A stretch of DNA of 64,000 bases from a virus, in the IMG/VR virus record IMGVR_UViG_3300031758_000004, positions 1 to 64,000 of that record. One strand, 5' to 3'. Numbering within the stretch: position 1 is the first letter of the stretch; the number at the start of each line of letters is the position of its first letter. Shown piece after piece: positions 9,887 through 63,194 of this stretch. A program made the position numbers and the translations under genes. Under the pieces are notes generated by a model that saw only the letters and a list, made by a program, of their open reading frames with translations, did no database searches and was not told the DNA's origin.

Positions 9887-11209
9887 ATGAGTAATTTAAA
9901 AACACTTAATGATTTAGAAAATACAGAATTACTTAACTCTATGTTTAGTAATGATATAACCGTATTCGAAGATATTCAAGGAAGTAAAATATGGGTTAAT
10001 TGGAATGGTAAAGATTTTACTATAAAAGCAAAATCAATTAATAGTGATTCTATTAATCTAATTGATTTAGCTATGCAAAATTATTATAACCCAGCTATAA
10101 AATACTTAGATTCACTAGATAATAGAGTTAAATCACTTTTAAATAAAAAATGGTGGTTTTGTTTTGAGTACTTTCCTGATAATCAACCAGCAAATATAGA
10201 ATATGATAAACTTCCAAAAAATGGATTAGTATTAACATCTATTTATAAAAGTGGTAAATATGAGTTTAATATCGAAGAGATTGATGAATATTCTAGATTG
10301 ATGAATGTTGATATGATACCGGTTATATTTCAGGGTAAATTAACAGAGAGAATGATTGAGGCTATAAAGTATTTTTTAAACACAAGTGAAGAAGATTTAG
10401 AATATGTTTTTGGTGATAAGTCTTTTGCCTTTTTCTTTTATAAAATATTAAATCCACTCTCGGAAAATTCTTTTTTAATGCTTGATGAATTTCAAGAAAA
10501 TTTAGAAAAGCTAATTGTTAGAATAGATAGTAAAGATATATCATTTCAATTACTAAATCCACTATATAAAAGAGTAAGTAGTGATAAGTCAACTGACTAT
10601 GTGGAAATATACTCATTAATCTTAATTAACTTTTTGAATTTTTGTCAATCTTTAAATTTAGAAGATATTAAACTAAAAGGTACTAAAAAAGATGAGATTT
10701 ATATTTATCTAATTTGTAAGTTGTACAATTTTTATTTAGATGAAGTTAAAGATGACTTAGTAAATTTTGAGTTTATAATACCGGAATTTTTTGATAAAGA
10801 AAAATTTAAAATAAATAAAGAATTAATTCCAAACAAGATGACTAAAGAATATTTAGAATTAGATTCTAAACTTGAATATATCTTTAAAATAATTCTTGGT
10901 TCATTTAATAAGAAAAGAAAAAAACCAATTGGAGTTTTTACTGAAAATACGGTTAAGTTATTCAACTTATTTGTTGATGATATTGATAAGTATATTGATA
11001 GATACTTGAATAAGATACATGAAGTTGAGTTAACAAGATCTGGTCTTTTAGACTTTGATGAGTTTTTTGATATTCAATATGAAACAGATGCTGAAGGAGA
11101 AGTTTATCCAGATGTATTTGATGAAATACAAAAAGGATCAGAAGATAAAAAGAAAAAAGGTAAAGGTGGTAAAATAACATCAATAGTTGATGAGAAAGGA
11201 GTTAAGTAA
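9887..11209 (+). CDS. Hypothetical protein, possibly a degenerate ligase/nucleotidyltransferase fold
   Basis: 440 aa; VFEDIQGSKIWV resembles ligase motif I (EKxDGS) without the Lys. Confidence 0.45.
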   Translation: MSNLKTLNDLENTELLNSMFSNDITVFEDIQGSKIWVNWNGKDFTIKAKSINSDSINLIDLAMQNYYNPAIKYLDSLDNRVKSLLNKKWWFCFEYFPDNQPANIEYDKLPKNGLVLTSIYKSGKYEFNIEEIDEYSRLMNVDMIPVIFQGKLTERMIEAIKYFLNTSEEDLEYVFGDKSFAFFFYKILNPLSENSFLMLDEFQENLEKLIVRIDSKDISFQLLNPLYKRVSSDKSTDYVEIYSLILINFLNFCQSLNLEDIKLKGTKKDEIYIYLICKLYNFYLDEVKDDLVNFEFIIPEFFDKEKFKINKELIPNKMTKEYLELDSKLEYIFKIILGSFNKKRKKPIGVFTENTVKLFNLFVDDIDKYIDRYLNKIHEVELTRSGLLDFDEFFDIQYETDAEGEVYPDVFDEIQKGSEDKKKKGKGGKITSIVDEKGVK

Positions 11210-11382
11210 TGAGTATAAAAATGAAATCTGTTGAGGTGAGCACTAAAGCATTAAAAGCTGAATGGAGTGTTGAAATGGTGACAGATTTAAGTCATCATTA
11301 TGGTATTGATGATAATTTTTTAGAAGGTATTTTAAGATCCGAAATTAGAAGAAATAAGATAAAGAAAATTTTTAAAAAGTAG
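11209..11382 (+). CDS. 57-aa protein resembling an internal segment of gp23-type major capsid protein
   Basis: Hand translation MSIKMKSVEVSTKALKAEWSVEMVTDLSHHYGIDDNFLEGILRSEIRRNKIKKIFKK; TAATG coupling to the upstream gene. Confidence 0.65.
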   Translation: MSIKMKSVEVSTKALKAEWSVEMVTDLSHHYGIDDNFLEGILRSEIRRNKIKKIFKK

Positions 11383-11392
11383 AACTAAAATC

Positions 11393-12646
11393 ATGATACA
11401 TGATATAATATCTATGAATTTAGAAGTCTTAGAAATTGAGGATAAAAAATTTCACTCAACTATCAGAAAAAAACTTGAAACTAAAAAATCAAGTTTACAA
11501 TTCTTACCAACTATCTTAGAAGAATTATCTGAAAATAAAAATTTTGAGTACAAAGGTGTAAAATTAAAATCATCTTATATAGTTGATATAATACACAATC
11601 TTATTTTAAAATATTATTTTAAAAAAGAGAATAAATTTAACTTAATGTCAACTATCCTAAAAGATAAGTATGGATATCTTTATAATTATTATATTGGATA
11701 TTTAGTAGATAATAATATACTAGAAATGATCTCCAATTACCAAGCTGGTAGAAATGCTAGAGTTTATAAAATAAATGATAAAGTTCTAAAAGGTAAAATA
11801 AATCGATATAGAAATTCGGATAATATTTTACTTAAAAAGTATCGAAATAATGTTTGTCAAATTGAAGAAGATGGTATTAAAAACAAACTTATAGATGATG
11901 ATATCAAAACGAAGTTAGTAGATGATCTTTTTTATATTGATATTCAATTTGATAGATCAATATTTTATTTAGATAATTTAAAAGATAATGATAGTGATAT
12001 TTATAATAGAAATAAATATTCAGTAGAGTGTATAAATGATAAACACATATTCTATCATTTTGATAATTATGGTAGAATGCACACAAATTTCACAATTTTA
12101 AAATCATTCATTAGAAAAAACTGTTTACTGATAGATGGTGAAGAAACTTGTGAAATTGATATCAACAACAGCCAACCTCTTTTTTTAACAAAAATAATTT
12201 CCGATAGTAACTCAAAATGGGTTAGAAGTGATGAGTTTGAATTATTCAAATATTTAACCATAAATGGTAAATATTATCAATATGTAATGGATCATTTAAA
12301 AACTACTGATAAAGGAATGGTTAAAGAAATGACTTACCGAGTTCTTTTTGGTAAGAATGCTTCCAATAGTAAAGCAGATAAAGTATTTTCTGAATTATTT
12401 CCATCAATACATTATTTTATAAAACTTTATAAAAAAGAAAAAGGTGATTATAAAATTCTATCATATGAATTACAAAGAGCAGAATCTAATTTAATTTTTA
12501 ATAAAATCATAAGAGATATAATGATTTTTTACCCTGAAGTAAAATTAGTTACTGTACATGATAGTATAATTATTCCTAAAAAATATAAAGAACCTATCGA
12601 AACAATTTTCAAAACCAAATTATTTGAAGAATTTAATATTTTATAA
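11393..12646 (+). CDS. PolA-superfamily palm-domain protein of unknown function
   Basis: YGRMHT..EIDINNSQP (motif A-like), KEMTYRVLFG (motif B-like), TVHDSII (motif C-like). Confidence 0.55.
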   Translation: MIHDIISMNLEVLEIEDKKFHSTIRKKLETKKSSLQFLPTILEELSENKNFEYKGVKLKSSYIVDIIHNLILKYYFKKENKFNLMSTILKDKYGYLYNYYIGYLVDNNILEMISNYQAGRNARVYKINDKVLKGKINRYRNSDNILLKKYRNNVCQIEEDGIKNKLIDDDIKTKLVDDLFYIDIQFDRSIFYLDNLKDNDSDIYNRNKYSVECINDKHIFYHFDNYGRMHTNFTILKSFIRKNCLLIDGEETCEIDINNSQPLFLTKIISDSNSKWVRSDEFELFKYLTINGKYYQYVMDHLKTTDKGMVKEMTYRVLFGKNASNSKADKVFSELFPSIHYFIKLYKKEKGDYKILSYELQRAESNLIFNKIIRDIMIFYPEVKLVTVHDSIIIPKKYKEPIETIFKTKLFEEFNIL

Positions 12647-12681
12647 TTAATATATAACTATAAGATATTAATATATAAAAT

Positions 12682-13215
12682 ATGAACGGATTAGAAAGTG
12701 TACAATCTTCATATATAATTCTATCAGCTGATAGATTAAACGAAATGATTTCTGTTCTTTATTCAAAAGAATATCAAATCTTACCTATACAAGGTTATTA
12801 TAAAGGTAACTTTGAAGATTCTGTTATTGCTTGGGGACCAGATAATGATTCTTTAAGAAGAGATGCTATTTTCTTATTAGATCATTTTAATCAAGATTGC
12901 GCAATTGTAAAATACCAAGGAGATTCAAATGCTAAAAAAGTTTTCTTTGATGGTTCTGAACAACCACTGGGTTTACTTATGTATAATACCGATTCGGAAA
13001 ATAAATCATATTTACACAATGGTGTATCATTTTCGTTCGTAGAAGCAAAAAGATATTGGGTTCCAAAAACTATGGATGATTTAAAAGTTGGAATGATTGT
13101 TGAATACATGAACAACAATAAGTGGTATGAAAAAAAGATACAAAACCCAAAAGACGAATGGGATAGAATGTATAAATTACTACTTAAATATGATAAATTA
13201 AGAGTACCAGCATAA
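12682..13215 (+). CDS. Hypothetical protein
   Basis: 177-aa ORF behind tandem TAATATATA (12648, 12669). Confidence 0.7.
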   Translation: MNGLESVQSSYIILSADRLNEMISVLYSKEYQILPIQGYYKGNFEDSVIAWGPDNDSLRRDAIFLLDHFNQDCAIVKYQGDSNAKKVFFDGSEQPLGLLMYNTDSENKSYLHNGVSFSFVEAKRYWVPKTMDDLKVGMIVEYMNNNKWYEKKIQNPKDEWDRMYKLLLKYDKLRVPA

Positions 13216-13243
13216 AAAAAGACATCTTATAGATGTCTTTTTT
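13214..13243. terminator. Bidirectional intrinsic terminator
   Basis: aaaaaaagacatct-tat-agatgtcttttt. Confidence 0.85.
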
Positions 13244-13246
13244 ATT

Positions 13247-13963
13247 TTATATAACTTTAAAACTACAATATTGTCTCTCCCAATTTGGTGTTTCTTTTAA
13301 GAAATATCTACCATTTCCCTCATCAAGAATACAAATAATTCCACTTTGATCTGTATTGTTTGTTCTAAAAACAATCACTTTATCAGGATCAATTGAATAA
13401 TCAACAAAGTGTTGAAGACCTGTATTAGATAACATATCTAAACAATCCACCATTTTATAAAAAACATTCTTTCCTAATATAACAGTTTTAGCAGGACCTA
13501 TTCTACCTTCAACAGCAATTAAGTTGGAAGCCATCATTACTTTAGAAATAAACTTTCTATTATCAGATCCATCTGGTGAGTTTGATAAAGTTAAATCTAA
13601 ATTAACAGGTGAATTCAAATTCAAGTTTGATTTGTCAATAAAGTCGATAATTTCATCATAAAGACTATCTTCTGATATATATCTTTTTGATTGAATACTC
13701 ATACTATAAACTTGTGGGGCTATAACACCACCAAAAGATAACTCATCTCTTAATGTCTGATCAGGAACTATATCCACTAAATCTTCTTCATTAGCCTCAT
13801 CAAGAACAACATCAATTGCGATGTTTCTTCTTTCCATTTTTTTCTTCAATCTTTCTTCTTCAGTTTCATACACAAAATCAATATAATTGACTTGTATTTG
13901 AGGTAGTGTATTTTTCTCCTCTTTAAAGTTTGAAATTATTTTTATTTTATCAAAAGTTGTCAT
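13247..13963 (-). CDS. Hypothetical protein with a gp23/major-capsid-like segment
   Basis: RKFISKVMMASNLIAVEGRIGPAKTVIL and FVDYSIDPDKVIVFR..QSGI resemble the gp23 A-domain region. Confidence 0.5.
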   Translation of the reverse strand: MTTFDKIKIISNFKEEKNTLPQIQVNYIDFVYETEEERLKKKMERRNIAIDVVLDEANEEDLVDIVPDQTLRDELSFGGVIAPQVYSMSIQSKRYISEDSLYDEIIDFIDKSNLNLNSPVNLDLTLSNSPDGSDNRKFISKVMMASNLIAVEGRIGPAKTVILGKNVFYKMVDCLDMLSNTGLQHFVDYSIDPDKVIVFRTNNTDQSGIICILDEGNGRYFLKETPNWERQYCSFKVI

Positions 13964-13996: not shown

Positions 13997-14914
13997 ATGG
14001 ATGATAAGTTTTACAACTTTATAAAAAAGGCAAATGATGTGCATAACAATTTTTATAATTATGATAGAGTAAATTACATAAACGCGAAAACGAAGATACT
14101 AATTGGATGTCCTATACATGGATATTTTGAACAATTACCATATAATCATTTAATTGGTAAGGGTTGTAAAAAATGTGCAATTGATAAAAATAAAAAATCA
14201 TTCAGTAAAAGTTTGTCCAAATTCATTGATCAATCAAATAAAGTTCATAATAACTTCTACAATTATGATCAAGTAGAATATATTAATGATGGTACGAAAG
14301 TTCATATATCTTGTCCTATACATGGATATTTTGACCAAACCCCAAATAAACATCTTAGAGGACAAGGATGTCCTAGATGTAAAATACAAAAAACTAAAAA
14401 TACTAACATTAAAAAATACTCACAATTTTTCCCTAGCAAAGCGAATAATACACATGGTGTTCTATATGATTATTCGAAGTTAAATTATATAAATGCTAAA
14501 ACACCAGTGGAAATAATTTGCCCAAAACATGGATCATTTAAACAAATGCCATCAAATCACTTAGATGGTAAGGGTTGTCCAAAATGTAATCAATCTAGAG
14601 GTGAGAATAGAATAGAGAGATTTCTAATAAAAAATAATATAACATACGAAACACAGAAAAAATTTGATGATTGTATAAAAAATAAAAAATTATCATTTGA
14701 CTTTTGGTTATCAGATAAAAATATTTTAATCGAATATGATGGTATACAACACTTCAAACCACTGGGATTTCAAGGTGGAATGGATAAGTTAAAATACACA
14801 ATAGAATGTGATAAAATAAAAGATGAATATTGTAAATCTAAAAATATTCATCTTTTAAGAATTTCATATAAAGATTTTAATAAAATTGAAGATATTTTAT
14901 TAAATAATATTTAA
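13997..14914 (+). mobile_element. Free-standing homing-endonuclease-like gene (CPxHG..GCPxC repeats plus Vsr/DUF559-like nuclease)
   Basis: Three YDY..CPxHG..HL.G.GC repeats; IEYDGIQH; TAATATATA at 13983. Confidence 0.8.
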
Positions 14915-15733: not shown

Positions 15734-16138
15734 ATGAATATAGTTGGTTGGAGAGAATTATTTCATTTTGTGGATCTTGGATTGGTTAATGTACCTGCTA
15801 AAATCGACACAGGTGCTTACAGTAATGTCTTACATTGTGACGAGATAGAGGAATTAGAAGGTAAATTACATTTTAGAATAGGCGATAAAAACTTCGTCTA
15901 TGAAAAATTCAAAACAATAAATGTTAAAAGTTCATTTGGTCATGAACAAGAACGTTATGCAATTCCCACAAGTGTTATTTTAGGAAATACTCCATATAAA
16001 TTATATGTTTCACTAAACAATCGTGATAATATGCAATATCCTATGTTAATAGGAAGAAGATTTCTACAAAAGTTCAACTTTATTGTTGATGTTAATAAAG
16101 AATGTTTAAATATAAATGATTTTTTTAAAAAAGTATAA
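15734..16138 (+). CDS. Retropepsin-like aspartic protease (RimK-associated 'ATP-dependent Zn protease' type)
   Basis: AKIDTGAYS, PMLIGRRFL. Confidence 0.75.
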   Translation: MNIVGWRELFHFVDLGLVNVPAKIDTGAYSNVLHCDEIEELEGKLHFRIGDKNFVYEKFKTINVKSSFGHEQERYAIPTSVILGNTPYKLYVSLNNRDNMQYPMLIGRRFLQKFNFIVDVNKECLNINDFFKKV

Positions 16139-16673
16139 TTTCTTTACTGGGACACCTAATCATATTTCCAGTGTACTCTTAGAAGTTGTTAACTTCCTTG
16201 AAGTTGATAATTATAATTATGTACTTTTCGCACCTAACAAAGAGAAAAGTTGTGGTCTTATATACGGACTACATAGTTGTATATTATTTAACAACTTTGA
16301 AGAGTTTGAAGAGTTAGTAAACGATAAGTCAAATCTATTTCGAGTTAACTTAATTGTAATTGATCTTTATCAATATAAAAGTCACCAAGTAACAAACTTC
16401 TTAAAAGTCATAGAAAAATTAGATTATAAATTCATTATAATTGCTAAAGAATATCACTACAAATCAACTGATGATGTAAATGATTTTCATGTTGAAATAA
16501 AATATAATCTTGATCCAAATATCACAACACCTACAAGTTTCAATGCCAATAGAAATTTACAATCTAAATTCATTAAAGATAATATCAATGGATGGACAAC
16601 CGAATTAGACAAATTGAAAGGTGCTTACATAAGAGATAAGAAAATTGATTCATTATTTGATGATGAAAAATAA
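16116..16673 (+). CDS. Hypothetical protein with C-terminal IRDKKIDSLF motif
   Basis: 185-aa ORF. Confidence 0.7.
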   Translation: MIFLKKYNFFTGTPNHISSVLLEVVNFLEVDNYNYVLFAPNKEKSCGLIYGLHSCILFNNFEEFEELVNDKSNLFRVNLIVIDLYQYKSHQVTNFLKVIEKLDYKFIIIAKEYHYKSTDDVNDFHVEIKYNLDPNITTPTSFNANRNLQSKFIKDNINGWTTELDKLKGAYIRDKKIDSLFDDEK

Positions 16674-18212: not shown

Positions 18213-18452
18213 ATGAGTTTAACTATTTGGGATGAAGTAAATACTCCTGCTGGTAAGGGTATATTAACTTCTGTTACAACACCAGGAAATGGTCTTTATA
18301 TCGATTATGATAGTGCCAGATGTTCTGTTTATTATCAAAAAAGAGTTGAATACCAAGGAGGTCTTTGGATATCAAGAGAATGGAATTATAAAGAAATATT
18401 AGATTTAAATAAAGACCTAATAAGAGATAATAAATTAAATAAAATTTTATGA
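18213..18452 (+). CDS. Small protein with C-terminal IRDNKLNKIL motif
   Basis: 79-aa ORF. Confidence 0.7.
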   Translation: MSLTIWDEVNTPAGKGILTSVTTPGNGLYIDYDSARCSVYYQKRVEYQGGLWISREWNYKEILDLNKDLIRDNKLNKIL

Positions 18453-23082: not shown

Positions 23083-23604
23083 ATGTTTGATAAAGATATA
23101 AACCTAATTATAGGAAGTAATTCCTTAGGGAAAACTTTTCTACTAAGAGATATAGTTGGATGTTTATATAACAGTAATATAATTTTCTTAGAAATTGATG
23201 GTACTAATTCACGATTCAAAGTAGAAAAATTAAAACATCTTTTCCTAAAAGTTTCCAATATAAAATCCAATTTACAATCAGATTTAATGATTATGGATAT
23301 GATTGATGAAATGGTAATTAAGAATAAAATAGATTATATTATAGTTGATGATATTGATTTTTTCAGTAGTGAAATATCTAAGAGAATATTGAATATAAAA
23401 ACAAAAAAGATACTTACCGTTACTAATCTTACTTTCAATAATGGTGGTTTCCCTAAAGAGAAAATTAAATTATTTTCAATACACCGACTGCCTGGATTAA
23501 ATCAAACTTTTGTATCAGTGGATGGTAATGTATATGAGATATCAAACTTTATTAAAACTATAAATAGAGATGAAAAAATAAATAAATTATTAGATGAAAA
23601 GTAA
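23083..23604 (+). CDS. P-loop-like protein with C-terminal NRDEKINKLL motif
   Basis: IIGSNSLGKT, IIVDDID. Confidence 0.55.
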   Translation: MFDKDINLIIGSNSLGKTFLLRDIVGCLYNSNIIFLEIDGTNSRFKVEKLKHLFLKVSNIKSNLQSDLMIMDMIDEMVIKNKIDYIIVDDIDFFSSEISKRILNIKTKKILTVTNLTFNNGGFPKEKIKLFSIHRLPGLNQTFVSVDGNVYEISNFIKTINRDEKINKLLDEK

Positions 23605-39906: not shown

Positions 39907-40786
39907 TTATGAGGATTTTATAACAGATAACATAGATAATACATCCTTTATCTATGTTTATCTGGATCCTAGAAAATCAGGAGACTATAAATATGGTGAA
40001 TATGAATTTAATCATGAACCTTTTTATGTTGGTGCTTCTAGTGGTAAAACTATACATGATCGAAAAGTTCGACATTTACAATACGCGAAAAACGATAAGG
40101 ATATAACAAATAATAATTACAAAAAGAATATAATAAAGAGTATATTATCAGATAAATTAGAACCAATTATATTGAAATATATTGATGGTATGAGTATATC
40201 AGATGCCTTTTTTAAGGAAAAAGATATGATACTAATCATTGGTAATAGATATGATAAGTCAGGACCTCTAGTTAATATATCAAAAGGAGGAGATGGTGGT
40301 GATAACTTTACTAATAATCCAAGAAAAGAGGAGATAAGAGAAAAGCATAGAAGAAATGCTTTAGGATCGAATAATAATATGTATGGTCTTCCTTTAGAAG
40401 AATATCCATCACATAAAGCAAAGTTGAGAGGAGAACATTGGAATATGGGTAGAACCGCGTCAATATCAACAAGAGAAAAGCTATCCAAACAAAGAAGTGG
40501 ATCTGGTAATAGTAGAGCTAAAAAAACTTTACTTTTTGATAAAGACTTCAATATAATTAGAGAATTTGATTATTGTTTTGATGTATCTAATTATATTAAC
40601 TCATCAAATAGGTCGGTTTCCAAGACCGCAAGTACAAATTCAAAAGAGGAAATGTATCCATATCATACAACAAAAGGTTATTATATAATCTATAAGGATG
40701 ATTGGGAAAATAAATTTAAGAATAAAGAAAATGAAATTAGAGAATATCTAAAGACATTTAAGAAAAATAAAAATCAATTTTCATAA
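39887..40786 (+). mobile_element. Free-standing GIY-YIG-like homing endonuclease
   Basis: FIYVYLDPR..FYVG..R, LVNISKGGDGG, NNMYG. Confidence 0.8.
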
Positions 40787-52514: not shown

Positions 52515-53213
52515 TTAAACTTCCCTTTCGAACCACCAATTGAAGTAAATATAATTATCACCTACAAGGTTGTAAGTTTCATCACCATGTCTTACTATGA
52601 TTTTATCAGGGTGTGATCTTACAACCTCTATTTCTAAACCTTTATCCATGATTAGTTGTTTTCCAGTTTCAATTGAATAACAAATAATTTCATCATTTAT
52701 AAGTTTATATGTTCCTGGTTCTGGTTTTAACCACTCTTTGATAGTTTTAATTATCAATCCCTTTATTTTAATAACCCATTCTTTTGCTTGGTATAAATCA
52801 TAGTCTTTAAAAACTTCTGATTCTAGTTCAGCATTTGGACTAAAAATATTTTCAATAACCCCCCAATATTCTTTTTCACCAATTATAAAAGTTAAATAAA
52901 CATTATAATAAATATTATGAGATTTTAAAATTCTAAGTATTTTCATACTTTTTATATCTTGATCTTCAAGTGCTAATTTACCTCTTAGTTGAGCATAAGC
53001 ATTTGAACCTGATAATTTAAACATAATATCATTTATTCTAGCCATTGCTTGTCTAATAGCATCTTGGTTTTTATCAAACGCATTTAAAGATAATTTTGGA
53101 TCATCAACACCTGATATAGACCCAGCTGATGTCTCAGCACCAAATCTTTGAAGATTGAATTCGGTAAAACTTTCATTAAATTTTTCAAATTTTTTTATTA
53201 TTCTATTAGACAT
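52515..53213 (-). CDS. Hypothetical protein with CTS-like N-terminus
   Basis: MSNRIIKKFEKFNESF. Confidence 0.6.
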   Translation of the reverse strand: MSNRIIKKFEKFNESFTEFNLQRFGAETSAGSISGVDDPKLSLNAFDKNQDAIRQAMARINDIMFKLSGSNAYAQLRGKLALEDQDIKSMKILRILKSHNIYYNVYLTFIIGEKEYWGVIENIFSPNAELESEVFKDYDLYQAKEWVIKIKGLIIKTIKEWLKPEPGTYKLINDEIICYSIETGKQLIMDKGLEIEVVRSHPDKIIVRHGDETYNLVGDNYIYFNWWFEREV

Positions 53214-54102
53214 TATCTTCTATTTTATTTTTTATATCATCTTTATAAGATATTCTTATTAGTTTGATATTATTAGAATTACAATAATTTGATTTTATCA
53301 AATCTCTTCTCTTTTGTATTTTAAAACTTTCTTGACCACCATAAAAATCAATAGGTTTGAAGTGTTGTTCACCATCGTATTCTATACAAATATTTAATTT
53401 AGGTAAATAAAAATCGAATCTTAATTCTTTTTTATAAAAACATTCTTTAAATGAGTGTTGACTTATATATTCTATATTATTAAATTCTAATATTCTTCTA
53501 ATCTCTCTTTCTCCTTTAGATTCTTGACATTTTGGACAACCAACTCCACTTAAATGTGAATGTGGCATTTGTTTGAATTTTCCATGTTTCAAACATATTA
53601 TATCAACTTTCTTATTCATGTTGATATACTCAACTAATTTATAGTCATATTTTTTCAAATGTATATTATTTGACCTTTCTATAAAAGTTTCAGTTGTTAT
53701 TTTTTTACATTTTGGACAATCTTGTCCTTTTAGATGATTATTAGGTGTTTGTTCAAATTCACCATGTTTTCTACATATTATTTTAACCTTTATCTTACTA
53801 CCTTTATAATCCACTTTTGAATAATCATACTTATCACCATTTAATAAGATAAAGTCATTAATTATATCTTTATTATTCTTTTTATTAAAATGTTTATCTG
53901 AGCATTCCGGACAATCTTGACCTCTTAAATGATTATTAGGTGTTTGTTCAAAAATACCATGAAATTTACATATTATTTTAACTTTAACTTTGTTATTAAC
54001 ATAAGATACTAATGAATAATCATACTCATCACCTCTTTTTGTGATACAATCTTCAATAAATGATTTAGTATTTTTCTTTTTAGTATTTCTTTGAATTGAC
54101 AT
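53206..54102 (-). mobile_element. Free-standing homing-endonuclease-like gene (CxxHG repeats plus Vsr/DUF559-like nuclease)
   Basis: GDKYDY..ICRKHGEFEQTP..CP.C repeats; IEYDGEQH. Confidence 0.8.
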
Positions 54103-54457: not shown

Positions 54458-54616
54458 ATGTTTGTAGCTCCCGATCCTAATACAATTGTACTTGGTGGTC
54501 CTGGTTCCAGGTTAAATCCATATAGTCATTGGTTCCAACCATTTCAAATCACTCGTCATAAAATGAGAAAGAAAAAAATTGAAAAAATATATGGAATTAG
54601 TAGGAAAGAAAAGTAA
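54458..54616 (+). CDS. Small protein (52 aa) with MRKKKIEKIY motif
   Basis: Hand-read ORF between two genes. Confidence 0.45.
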   Translation: MFVAPDPNTIVLGGPGSRLNPYSHWFQPFQITRHKMRKKKIEKIYGISRKEK

Positions 54617-54848
54617 TTTAGAACCTGGTTATGTTTTTGCTCCGTATATAATACAAACATCTAATCCTATAATTGATGGTAGTTTAAAACAGAATATTAG
54701 AAGGGTGAAAATAAATAAAGTTTATAACCTTAATAGAGAAATAAAAGATAGTCAATTTTCACCAAAAATGGCAGTTAAATCAAGATATTCTGTTACAAGT
54801 GTAAATAGTAATTATTTTGGAAAGATTGAAATAAAAAACCCACTTTAA
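54591..54848 (+). CDS. Small protein resembling the C-terminus of gp23-type major capsid protein
   Basis: LVGKK..EPGYVFAPY..FSPKMAVKSRY..VNSNYFGKI. Confidence 0.6.
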   Translation: MELVGKKSNLEPGYVFAPYIIQTSNPIIDGSLKQNIRRVKINKVYNLNREIKDSQFSPKMAVKSRYSVTSVNSNYFGKIEIKNPL

Positions 54849-62472: not shown

Positions 62473-62844
62473 ATGAACCGTCCAGAAGTAAGAATAGTTC
62501 AAAATCAAGAGATTGAAACTAATCAAAATCCTAACATTGATAATTGGGAAGCTGAACAATTATTAAGAAAGTATGGATATAAACCGGAAAATTCCAATAC
62601 TTTTCAACAACCTGAACAAATTGAACAACCTGGGATGACATTTGAGGAAATGATTGCTCAAGAAGAAAATAGAAGAAATCAAGAACGAATGAGAATGGAA
62701 CAACAAATGAGAGGTCCTAAACCAGTTTCATTTGATGGTAGAAATGGTTATTATTCACAAACTTCATATGGTACTGATAGTGATTCTGGATTTTCATTCA
62801 AGATTGAAGTTACTAGTGATATGAATATTCCTAAAAATTACTAA
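62473..62844 (+). CDS. Hypothetical protein
   Basis: 123 aa, Q/E/N-rich. Confidence 0.65.
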   Translation: MNRPEVRIVQNQEIETNQNPNIDNWEAEQLLRKYGYKPENSNTFQQPEQIEQPGMTFEEMIAQEENRRNQERMRMEQQMRGPKPVSFDGRNGYYSQTSYGTDSDSGFSFKIEVTSDMNIPKNY

Positions 62845-63194
62845 TTTAATATCTGACTTAATTTTAATTCTCTTAATAACTGAATTAGTATAGGAGATGT
62901 TCTGAATGGAAAATAGTGATTTGGGACTTCTTCATTTAAAAACTTTTTAAAGTTTAAAATTATTGTAGTTTCTTTATAATCTGATTTTGATAAATCAAAG
63001 TGGTAAATTCCCTTTTTAAAAGACTCTTGTAGATGTGATAACGAACACAAGTCATAAAATCCGTTAATAAATCCAAACCATTTTTTCATAAGATATTCTA
63101 AATCATTATTGAATTCATATTCAGATAACTCATTTTCATTTAGTATTTTTAATACCAAATAGTTTTTATCACTTAATGTTATTTTATTATCCAT
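62841..63194 (-). CDS. Hypothetical protein with C-terminal LRELKLSQIL motif
   Basis: 117 aa. Confidence 0.65.
   Translation of the reverse strand: MDNKITLSDKNYLVLKILNENELSEYEFNNDLEYLMKKWFGFINGFYDLCSLSHLQESFKKGIYHFDLSKSDYKETTIILNFKKFLNEEVPNHYFPFRTSPILIQLLRELKLSQILN

Follow-up and report, generated by a model that had tools for sequence, protein, structure and literature searches.

P4 Sid and SaPI1 CpmB are small proteins that bind capsid proteins of the HK97 fold and alter the capsid lattice, and CpmB, like scaffolds, docks via a C-terminal helix. In phage T4, a short piece of the capsid protein gp23 acts alone as a recognized element. This is the Gol region (residues 93–122), which is linked to the Lit protease of e14; no other trigger derived from gp23 is known to have been characterized. 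Here we examine a gene of 57 codons (11,209–11,382, + strand) in a 64,000-nucleotide stretch of viral DNA (positions 1 to 64,000 of IMG/VR record IMGVR_UViG_3300031758_000004; hereafter the window). Its product, termed the mini-protein, resembles one segment of gp23. The mini-protein is similar to Gol in being a short gp23 piece that stands by itself, but Gol is a different segment, forms part of the full protein, and triggers a defense, whereas the mini-protein is encoded by a separate gene, presumably to the advantage of the phage. The likeness to Sid and CpmB is a proposed one and has its own limit, in that those proteins are unrelated in sequence to the capsid protein they bind, while the mini-protein is itself a capsid fragment. 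A literature search returned no description of such capsid-fragment mini-genes, and we know of no capsid fragment that a phage encodes for use as a weapon or a shield.

The window corresponds to bases 59,941–123,940, read on the minus strand, of a 135.8-kb viral contig of 27.5% G+C, whose coding density is 95% with the standard genetic code. In public data, its closest kin are two uncultured megaphages, LR745206 (635 kb) and LR756502 (642 kb), which share ~73% DNA identity over the region and belong to the freshwater and subsurface phages of >630 kb (PMC9723777). The source of the gene is an uncultured megaphage from lake water that is kin to these two.

Relationship of the mini-protein to T4-type capsid proteins

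The major capsid protein gp23 and the vertex protein gp24 of T4 are members of family PF07068 and adopt the HK97 fold (PDB 5vf3, 6uzc, 7vs5, and 1yue). In the T4 head, neighboring capsomers owe part of their connection near the quasi-threefold axes to charge contacts between a short negative helix of the gp23 P domain and a positive P-domain strand region. The head-length mutations A268V, A275T, D285V, and D287V/N adjoin that acidic helix, and the gp31-bypass mutations G292S, V306I, and V307I lie within the gp23 spine helix (PMC9546572). The features of the mini-gene that correspond to these elements are as follows.

11,209–11,382, + strand: mini-gene, 57 aa plus TAG stop (open reading frame list, Pfam Gp23, family of 52–73 aa)
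11,209–11,268, + strand: conserved extended segment, residues 1–20, with V8, T12, R/K13, L15, R/K16, W19, and T/S20 (conservation, AlphaFold2)
11,269–11,298, + strand: short acidic helix, residues 21–30, with E22 (95%) and D26 (99%), equivalent to T4 E273 and D277 (AlphaFold2, conservation)
11,311–11,376, + strand: long helix, residues 35–56, equivalent to the gp23 spine helix (AlphaFold2 pLDDT ~90, alignments)

The translation of the mini-gene is intact and identical to that quoted in a preliminary description of the locus, which had identified it as a stand-alone fragment of a gp23-type capsid protein. Alignment to the gp23 profile bears this out, with a score of 36.3 bits (E 5.8e-9) for Pfam PF07068 (Gp23), whose curated threshold is 24.4, and with residues 1–47 placed on profile positions 136–183 of 376. 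The mini-protein also matches PHROG 138 (major head protein; E 7.6e-9), and 10 of 11 family members taken singly match Gp23, the best with E 2.3e-11. By tblastn against 50,697 phage records, the mini-protein finds the capsid genes of 1930 T4-like records at ~47% identity over residues 3–46. In a PDB search, the family profile aligned with T4 gp23 residues 248–307 (E 4.9e-8) and with gp24 residues 169–212 (E 0.056); the mini-protein sequence alone aligns with T4 gp23 residues 256–299.

An AlphaFold2 model built from a 118-sequence alignment (mean pLDDT 80) predicts residues 1–20 to be extended or coil with no partner in the chain, followed by helices at residues 21–30 and 35–56. A Foldseek search with the 57-aa model gave no match, the model being too small to be informative. 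Residues 5–20 align with the gp23 P-domain strand (T4 256–271), and the best-conserved residues of the family coincide with those shared with T4, namely R13 (R264), E22 (E273), D26 (D277), L27 (L278), D34 (D285), and L38 (L290). At the four T4 head-length positions, the family has A17, A24 (V in this phage), D34, and E/D35. Among the differences, W replaces Y270, and the basic residues R43, R47, and K50 lie on the long helix. By homology, the mini-protein is a free-standing version of three elements of a T4-type capsid protein (the basic P-domain strand, the short acidic helix, and the spine helix), and the residue mapping onto T4 indicates that it copies a capsid element that lies at an inter-capsomer contact.

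The complete HK97 fold, with its N-arm, E-loop, and P and A domains, is absent, as seen from the partial profile match, the length of 57 aa, and a model that consists of one extended segment and two helices. Only ~60 of the 521 residues of T4 gp23 are represented. The N-arm, E-loop, insertion domain, A domain, and other P-domain strands are all missing, so the mini-protein cannot form a capsomer. On these alignments, it is a homologous fragment of Gp23 and not a capsid protein. Nearly all clusters of the 52–73-aa family are automatically annotated as PF07068 "Gp23," yet none can be a capsid protein, which matters to annotators.

The phage has a capsid protein of its own. The 135.8-kb contig ends ~4 kb short of the capsid gene, but a second contig from the same sample (L076) overlaps this end with 100% identity over 3771 bp. 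On it lies the uninterrupted gene for a capsid protein of 583 aa, P0123, with a Pfam Gp23 score of 97 bits. The mini-protein is therefore not the shell protein of this phage and, unlike gp23, is encoded apart from the true capsid gene. A split capsid gene, an intron, or an intein was considered as well and is ruled out by the intact capsid gene. Profile–profile alignment places the mini-protein on P0123 residues 326–389 with 21% identity (E 5e-4); BLASTP between the two sequences gave nothing meaningful. The corresponding segment of P0123 alone scores 22.6 bits against Pfam Gp23, compared with 36.3 for the mini-protein. In sequence, then, the mini-protein is closer to canonical T4-type gp23 (~47%) than to the capsid protein of its own phage (21%, from the profile alignment), and it is no recent copy of P0123.

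Conservation and genomic setting of the mini-gene

Profile searches recovered at least 145 clusters (90% identity) of proteins of 52–73 aa on megaphage-type contigs of up to 640 kb; none is named, and the reading frames are intact in all of them. A phmmer search of the full library returned small relatives of 53–67 aa. Two long matches in that search, P0004 and P0007, were set aside as unrelated, repetitive proteins whose scores sum many weak repeats. No longer or fused form sharing words with the mini-protein was found in a collection of 5.8 billion proteins. The best-conserved positions are W19 (97%), E22 (95%), D26 (99%), L38 (92%), R47 (93%), and I54 (92%), and 114 of 120 members share the core W-[TS]-x-E-[MLI]-x-x-D-[LIV].

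Comparison with a 79%-identical variant (L005) gave a dN/dS of 0.34 for the mini-gene (Fisher p 0.018), with 12 conservative replacements and no indel. In the same comparison, dN/dS of the upstream gene is 0.03, and dN is 0.118 for the mini-gene vs 0.017 for its neighbors. The sequence data thus show a real, conserved gene under purifying selection. The preliminary description had left room for neutral decay across relatives; what we find instead is conservation, with intact frames and a fixed gene order that do not fit a pseudogene or remnant.

The mini-gene lies within a block of genes with the following features.

11,195–11,201, + strand: Shine-Dalgarno-like AAAGGAG, 7 nt 5′ of the ATG (sequence)
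11,207–11,211, + strand: TAATG, in which the TAA of the 440-aa gene shares a base with the ATG of the mini-gene (sequence, open reading frame list)
9,887–11,209, + strand: 440-aa gene, candidate RNA-ligase-like by language-model similarity only (some atlas-neighbor clusters carry PF09414)
11,393–12,646, + strand: 417-aa gene, family-A polymerase palm-like (nearby atlas clusters are named family-A DNA polymerase palm domain)
12,682–13,215, + strand: 177-aa gene, last of the co-directional unit, with a weak S-AdoMet-lyase-like match (PF23780, E 2.9e-5, below cut-off)
13,215–13,243, + strand: terminator-like hairpin that ends the unit 9,887–13,215 (hairpin scan)
13,247–13,963, − strand: gene for a 238-aa protein, predicted to be a compact HK97-fold paralog and conserved in this block (found with a capsid query from LR756502, L013, E 1.8e-4)

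The preliminary description had called the mini-gene translationally coupled, and as a statement about position this is supported: the TAATG overlap and the AAAGGAG ribosome site place the 57-aa frame where it could be coupled to translation of the 440-aa gene. That description also took the fragment to be expressed; no RNA run containing this stretch was found. AAAGGAG is also found in L005, and AAAGGA in L020; the upstream stop and the mini-gene start likewise abut or overlap in L003, L004, L020, and L026. A promoter scan was uninformative, with fewer sites than in shuffled sequence.

Gene order is constant in every context examined, with a gene of ~440 aa followed by the mini-gene, genes of ~415 aa and ~180 aa, and then a gene of ~250 aa on the opposite strand. 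The same block is present in L021, L023–L026, LR745206, and LR756502. One genome carries an extra gene between the upstream gene and the mini-gene, and the ~415-aa gene still lies directly 3′ of the mini-gene. In the more distant megaphages LR756504 and LR756501, no family member was found within 4 kb of the RNA-ligase-like gene. The 440-aa and 417-aa proteins have no sequence match in Pfam, PHROG, or PDB. PADLOC gave no match, and NCBIfam gave nothing useful.

The shared C-terminal motif and other capsid-derived genes

The mini-protein ends in a motif that recurs in other proteins of the phage and in several further genes related to the capsid protein.

11,347–11,373, + strand: shared motif RRNKIKKIF, residues 47–55, with R47 (93%), K50 (78%), I54 (92%), and an aromatic residue at 55 (family conservation)
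54,458–54,616, + strand: 52-aa mini-gene, capsid ~503–537 (assigned by eye) plus C-terminal MRKKKIEKIY (orthologs in LR745206 and LR756502)
54,591–54,848, + strand: 85-aa mini-gene, capsid P-domain hairpin (T4 gp23 438–478) whose P loop holds the motif helix as an insertion (Pfam Gp23, E 0.0041)
134,020–134,724 of the 135.8-kb contig, outside the window, − strand: second capsid-related protein of ~235 aa, ending in the motif MRDEKIDKLL

The pattern R..[KR][IL]..[ILV][FLYWI] occurs within eight residues of the C terminus in 11 of the 153 genes (~7%) of the contig, compared with 4 matches at 40,460 other positions, which is an 80-fold C-terminal enrichment (Fisher p 6e-14). The codons differ among copies, indicating conservation at the peptide level. 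Carriers include a thymidine-kinase-like P-loop protein and a 234-aa capsid-like paralog near the capsid gene; within the window, further carriers lie at 16,116–16,673, 18,213–18,452, 23,083–23,604, and 62,841–63,194, among others. In the mini-protein the motif, basic and amphipathic in the form R-K-x-K-I-x-K-I-F, leaves only KK before the stop codon, and its strict form is present in 41 of 120 family members and a looser form in 101 of 120.

The preliminary description regarded this motif as a tag to which the capsid fragment had been fused. That the C-terminal motif is shared is clear. On fusion of an add-on, the evidence points both ways. The alignment with P0123 passes through the motif, with K-I-F on the capsid protein's own ...AKIF, and the alignment with T4 gp23 continues to profile position 60 of 68, again collinear through the motif. 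These collinear alignments suggest that the spine helix would naturally end where the motif lies. On the other side, R47 and K50 are peculiar to the mini-protein. A sister mini-family in LR756502 (L018:1462–1674) and LR745206 (L019:1453–1656) consists of proteins of 67–70 aa in which a bare spine helix is joined to the motif (RRKNSINKIF) by a short linker. Short address peptides offer a parallel, in that one short peptide is common to many unrelated proteins at a fixed terminus; examples are the T4 capsid-targeting sequence, encapsulin cargo-loading peptides, and clamp-binding C-terminal tails. The motif described here differs from these in sequence and is in register with a capsid spine helix.

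The 52-aa and 85-aa mini-genes are adjacent and overlap. The profile of the 85-aa family matches only T4 gp23 in the PDB, at residues 438–478, a region that includes the bypass site A455 and, in the P loop, the second head-length cluster T457/R460/G461 (PMC9546572). In LR745206 and LR756502, the hairpin homolog carries the motif at its C-terminal end rather than in the P loop. Homologs of both the 57-aa and the 85-aa mini-genes are present in the contig, LR745206, and LR756502, and four of five further contigs with an 85-aa homolog also hold one 57-aa homolog. Two paralogous endonuclease genes (13,997–14,914 and 53,206–54,102; PHROG 559, HNH endonuclease, with repeated zinc-ribbon modules) adjoin both capsid-fragment loci.

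For the 238-aa protein, all top Foldseek matches of a low-confidence AlphaFold2 model are HK97-fold capsids or encapsulins (best E 1.2e-5), and the P4 Sid procapsid 7jw1 is among the matches. Scans of viral contigs with the 238-aa or the 85-aa protein as a single query returned nothing; an alignment query did find relatives. We also considered that the mini-protein might supply the spine helix to the 238-aa paralog. This idea was rejected, as the low-confidence model of the paralog already shows a strand and a helix of 17 residues in this position.

Possible roles of the mini-protein

We tentatively favor molecular mimicry of a capsid contact element, a reading that is plausible but short of probable. 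The mini-protein may modulate or block gp23-type lattice contacts, either in the capsid of its own phage or in that of a T4-like competitor. Because the N-terminal strand has no partner within the chain, the mini-protein probably acts by adding this conserved strand and the acidic helix to the partner that the element contacts in the capsid. Homology points to the P domain of a gp23-type subunit, close to the quasi-threefold axis, as the candidate partner; a factor that reads this capsid element is the alternative. The C-terminal helix might couple the mini-protein to a putative reader of the shared motif, and the outcome would be that gp23-type lattice contacts are modulated or blocked. Mimicry is supported by the 85-aa mini-gene, which copies the P-loop hairpin with the other quasi-threefold head-length cluster and co-occurs with the 57-aa family. 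Whereas the structural mapping favors a lattice contact, the fast evolution of the mini-gene and its "foreign" look favor a role in conflict.

Several observations weigh against mimicry of a lattice contact. Within the clade, protein identity is 26–49% for the mini-gene vs 58–78% for the flanking enzyme genes and 67–86% for the true capsid protein, and a protein that pairs stoichiometrically with so well conserved a capsid surface would not be expected to evolve this much faster. The mini-gene is located among enzyme genes, outside any head-assembly module. Moreover, its resemblance to T4-like gp23 exceeds that to the phage's own capsid protein, so the latter may not be the target. A broader form of the mimicry reading, which we consider doubtful, would make the mini-protein one member of a clade-wide system of free-standing virion-protein contact elements that share a C-terminal helix and act as targeted mimics. 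This member would copy the quasi-threefold contact and head-length element of a canonical T4-type capsid protein. It would either cap or distort gp23-type lattices when T4-like phages co-infect, or blind a sensor of that element, and the diverged capsid of its own phage would be spared.

The preliminary description proposed, besides a modulator of assembly, that the mini-protein might be a decoy, which would occupy a host defense sensor of the conserved capsid element without activating it. We judge the decoy reading unlikely. In its favor, the most canonical gp23 motif is retained, and the mini-gene evolves fast relative to its neighbors both in dN and in clade-wide identity. The adjacent RNA-ligase-like and S-AdoMet-lyase-like genes, on weak evidence, have possible counter-defense roles. 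However, with the phage's own capsid so diverged in this segment (22.6 vs 36.3 bits; 21% identity), the mini-protein would not mimic the phage's own trigger, the only gp23-derived trigger known to have been characterized is the Gol region in another segment, and PADLOC reveals no relation. That same divergence is what would let the phage's own capsid escape if the mini-protein were instead a dominant-negative poison against co-infecting T4-like phages. Such a role is rather improbable in our view. It agrees with the much higher identity to the capsid genes of T4-like records than to the profile of the phage's own capsid protein, with a per-position Pfam score about twice that of the own-capsid segment, and with the position of the segment at an inter-capsomer contact and head-length sites in T4, but a folded subunit may outcompete a fragment of 57 aa.

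Two further readings draw on the 85-aa mini-protein. The 57-aa protein (strand and spine helix) could pair with it (hairpin) to rebuild a free unit like the P domain from several pieces. The parts they copy complement each other within one domain, the two co-occur in most records examined, and both carry the motif. Yet their genes are 43 kb apart and the pair would lack the strand before the E-loop; we regard this reading as quite remote. It is remoter still that the mini-protein is a chaperonin-directed peptide that exposes hard-to-fold gp23 P-domain elements and engages GroEL or a co-chaperonin. The gp31-bypass sites G292S, V306I, V307I, and A455V all fall in segments copied by the 57-aa and 85-aa mini-proteins, but this overlap is a correlation only. 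We give almost no credence to the view that the mini-gene is a neutral leftover of a duplicated capsid gene or that the match arose by chance. The short length of the gene and its faster evolution relative to its neighbors would fit, but the conservation data contradict this reading, given the number of intact clusters, the shared core, the dN/dS value, the fixed synteny, and the Pfam E-value; moreover, no longer protein shares words with the mini-protein.

If mimicry of a capsid contact element is correct, huge phages encode small proteins made from the exact element that controls capsomer contacts and head length in T4. This would offer a natural means, simple in genetic terms, of getting at the control of capsid size and at phage–phage or phage–host conflict. 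In addition, the C-terminal motif found across the proteome, in ~7% of the proteins of this phage, would be linked to a concrete cargo.

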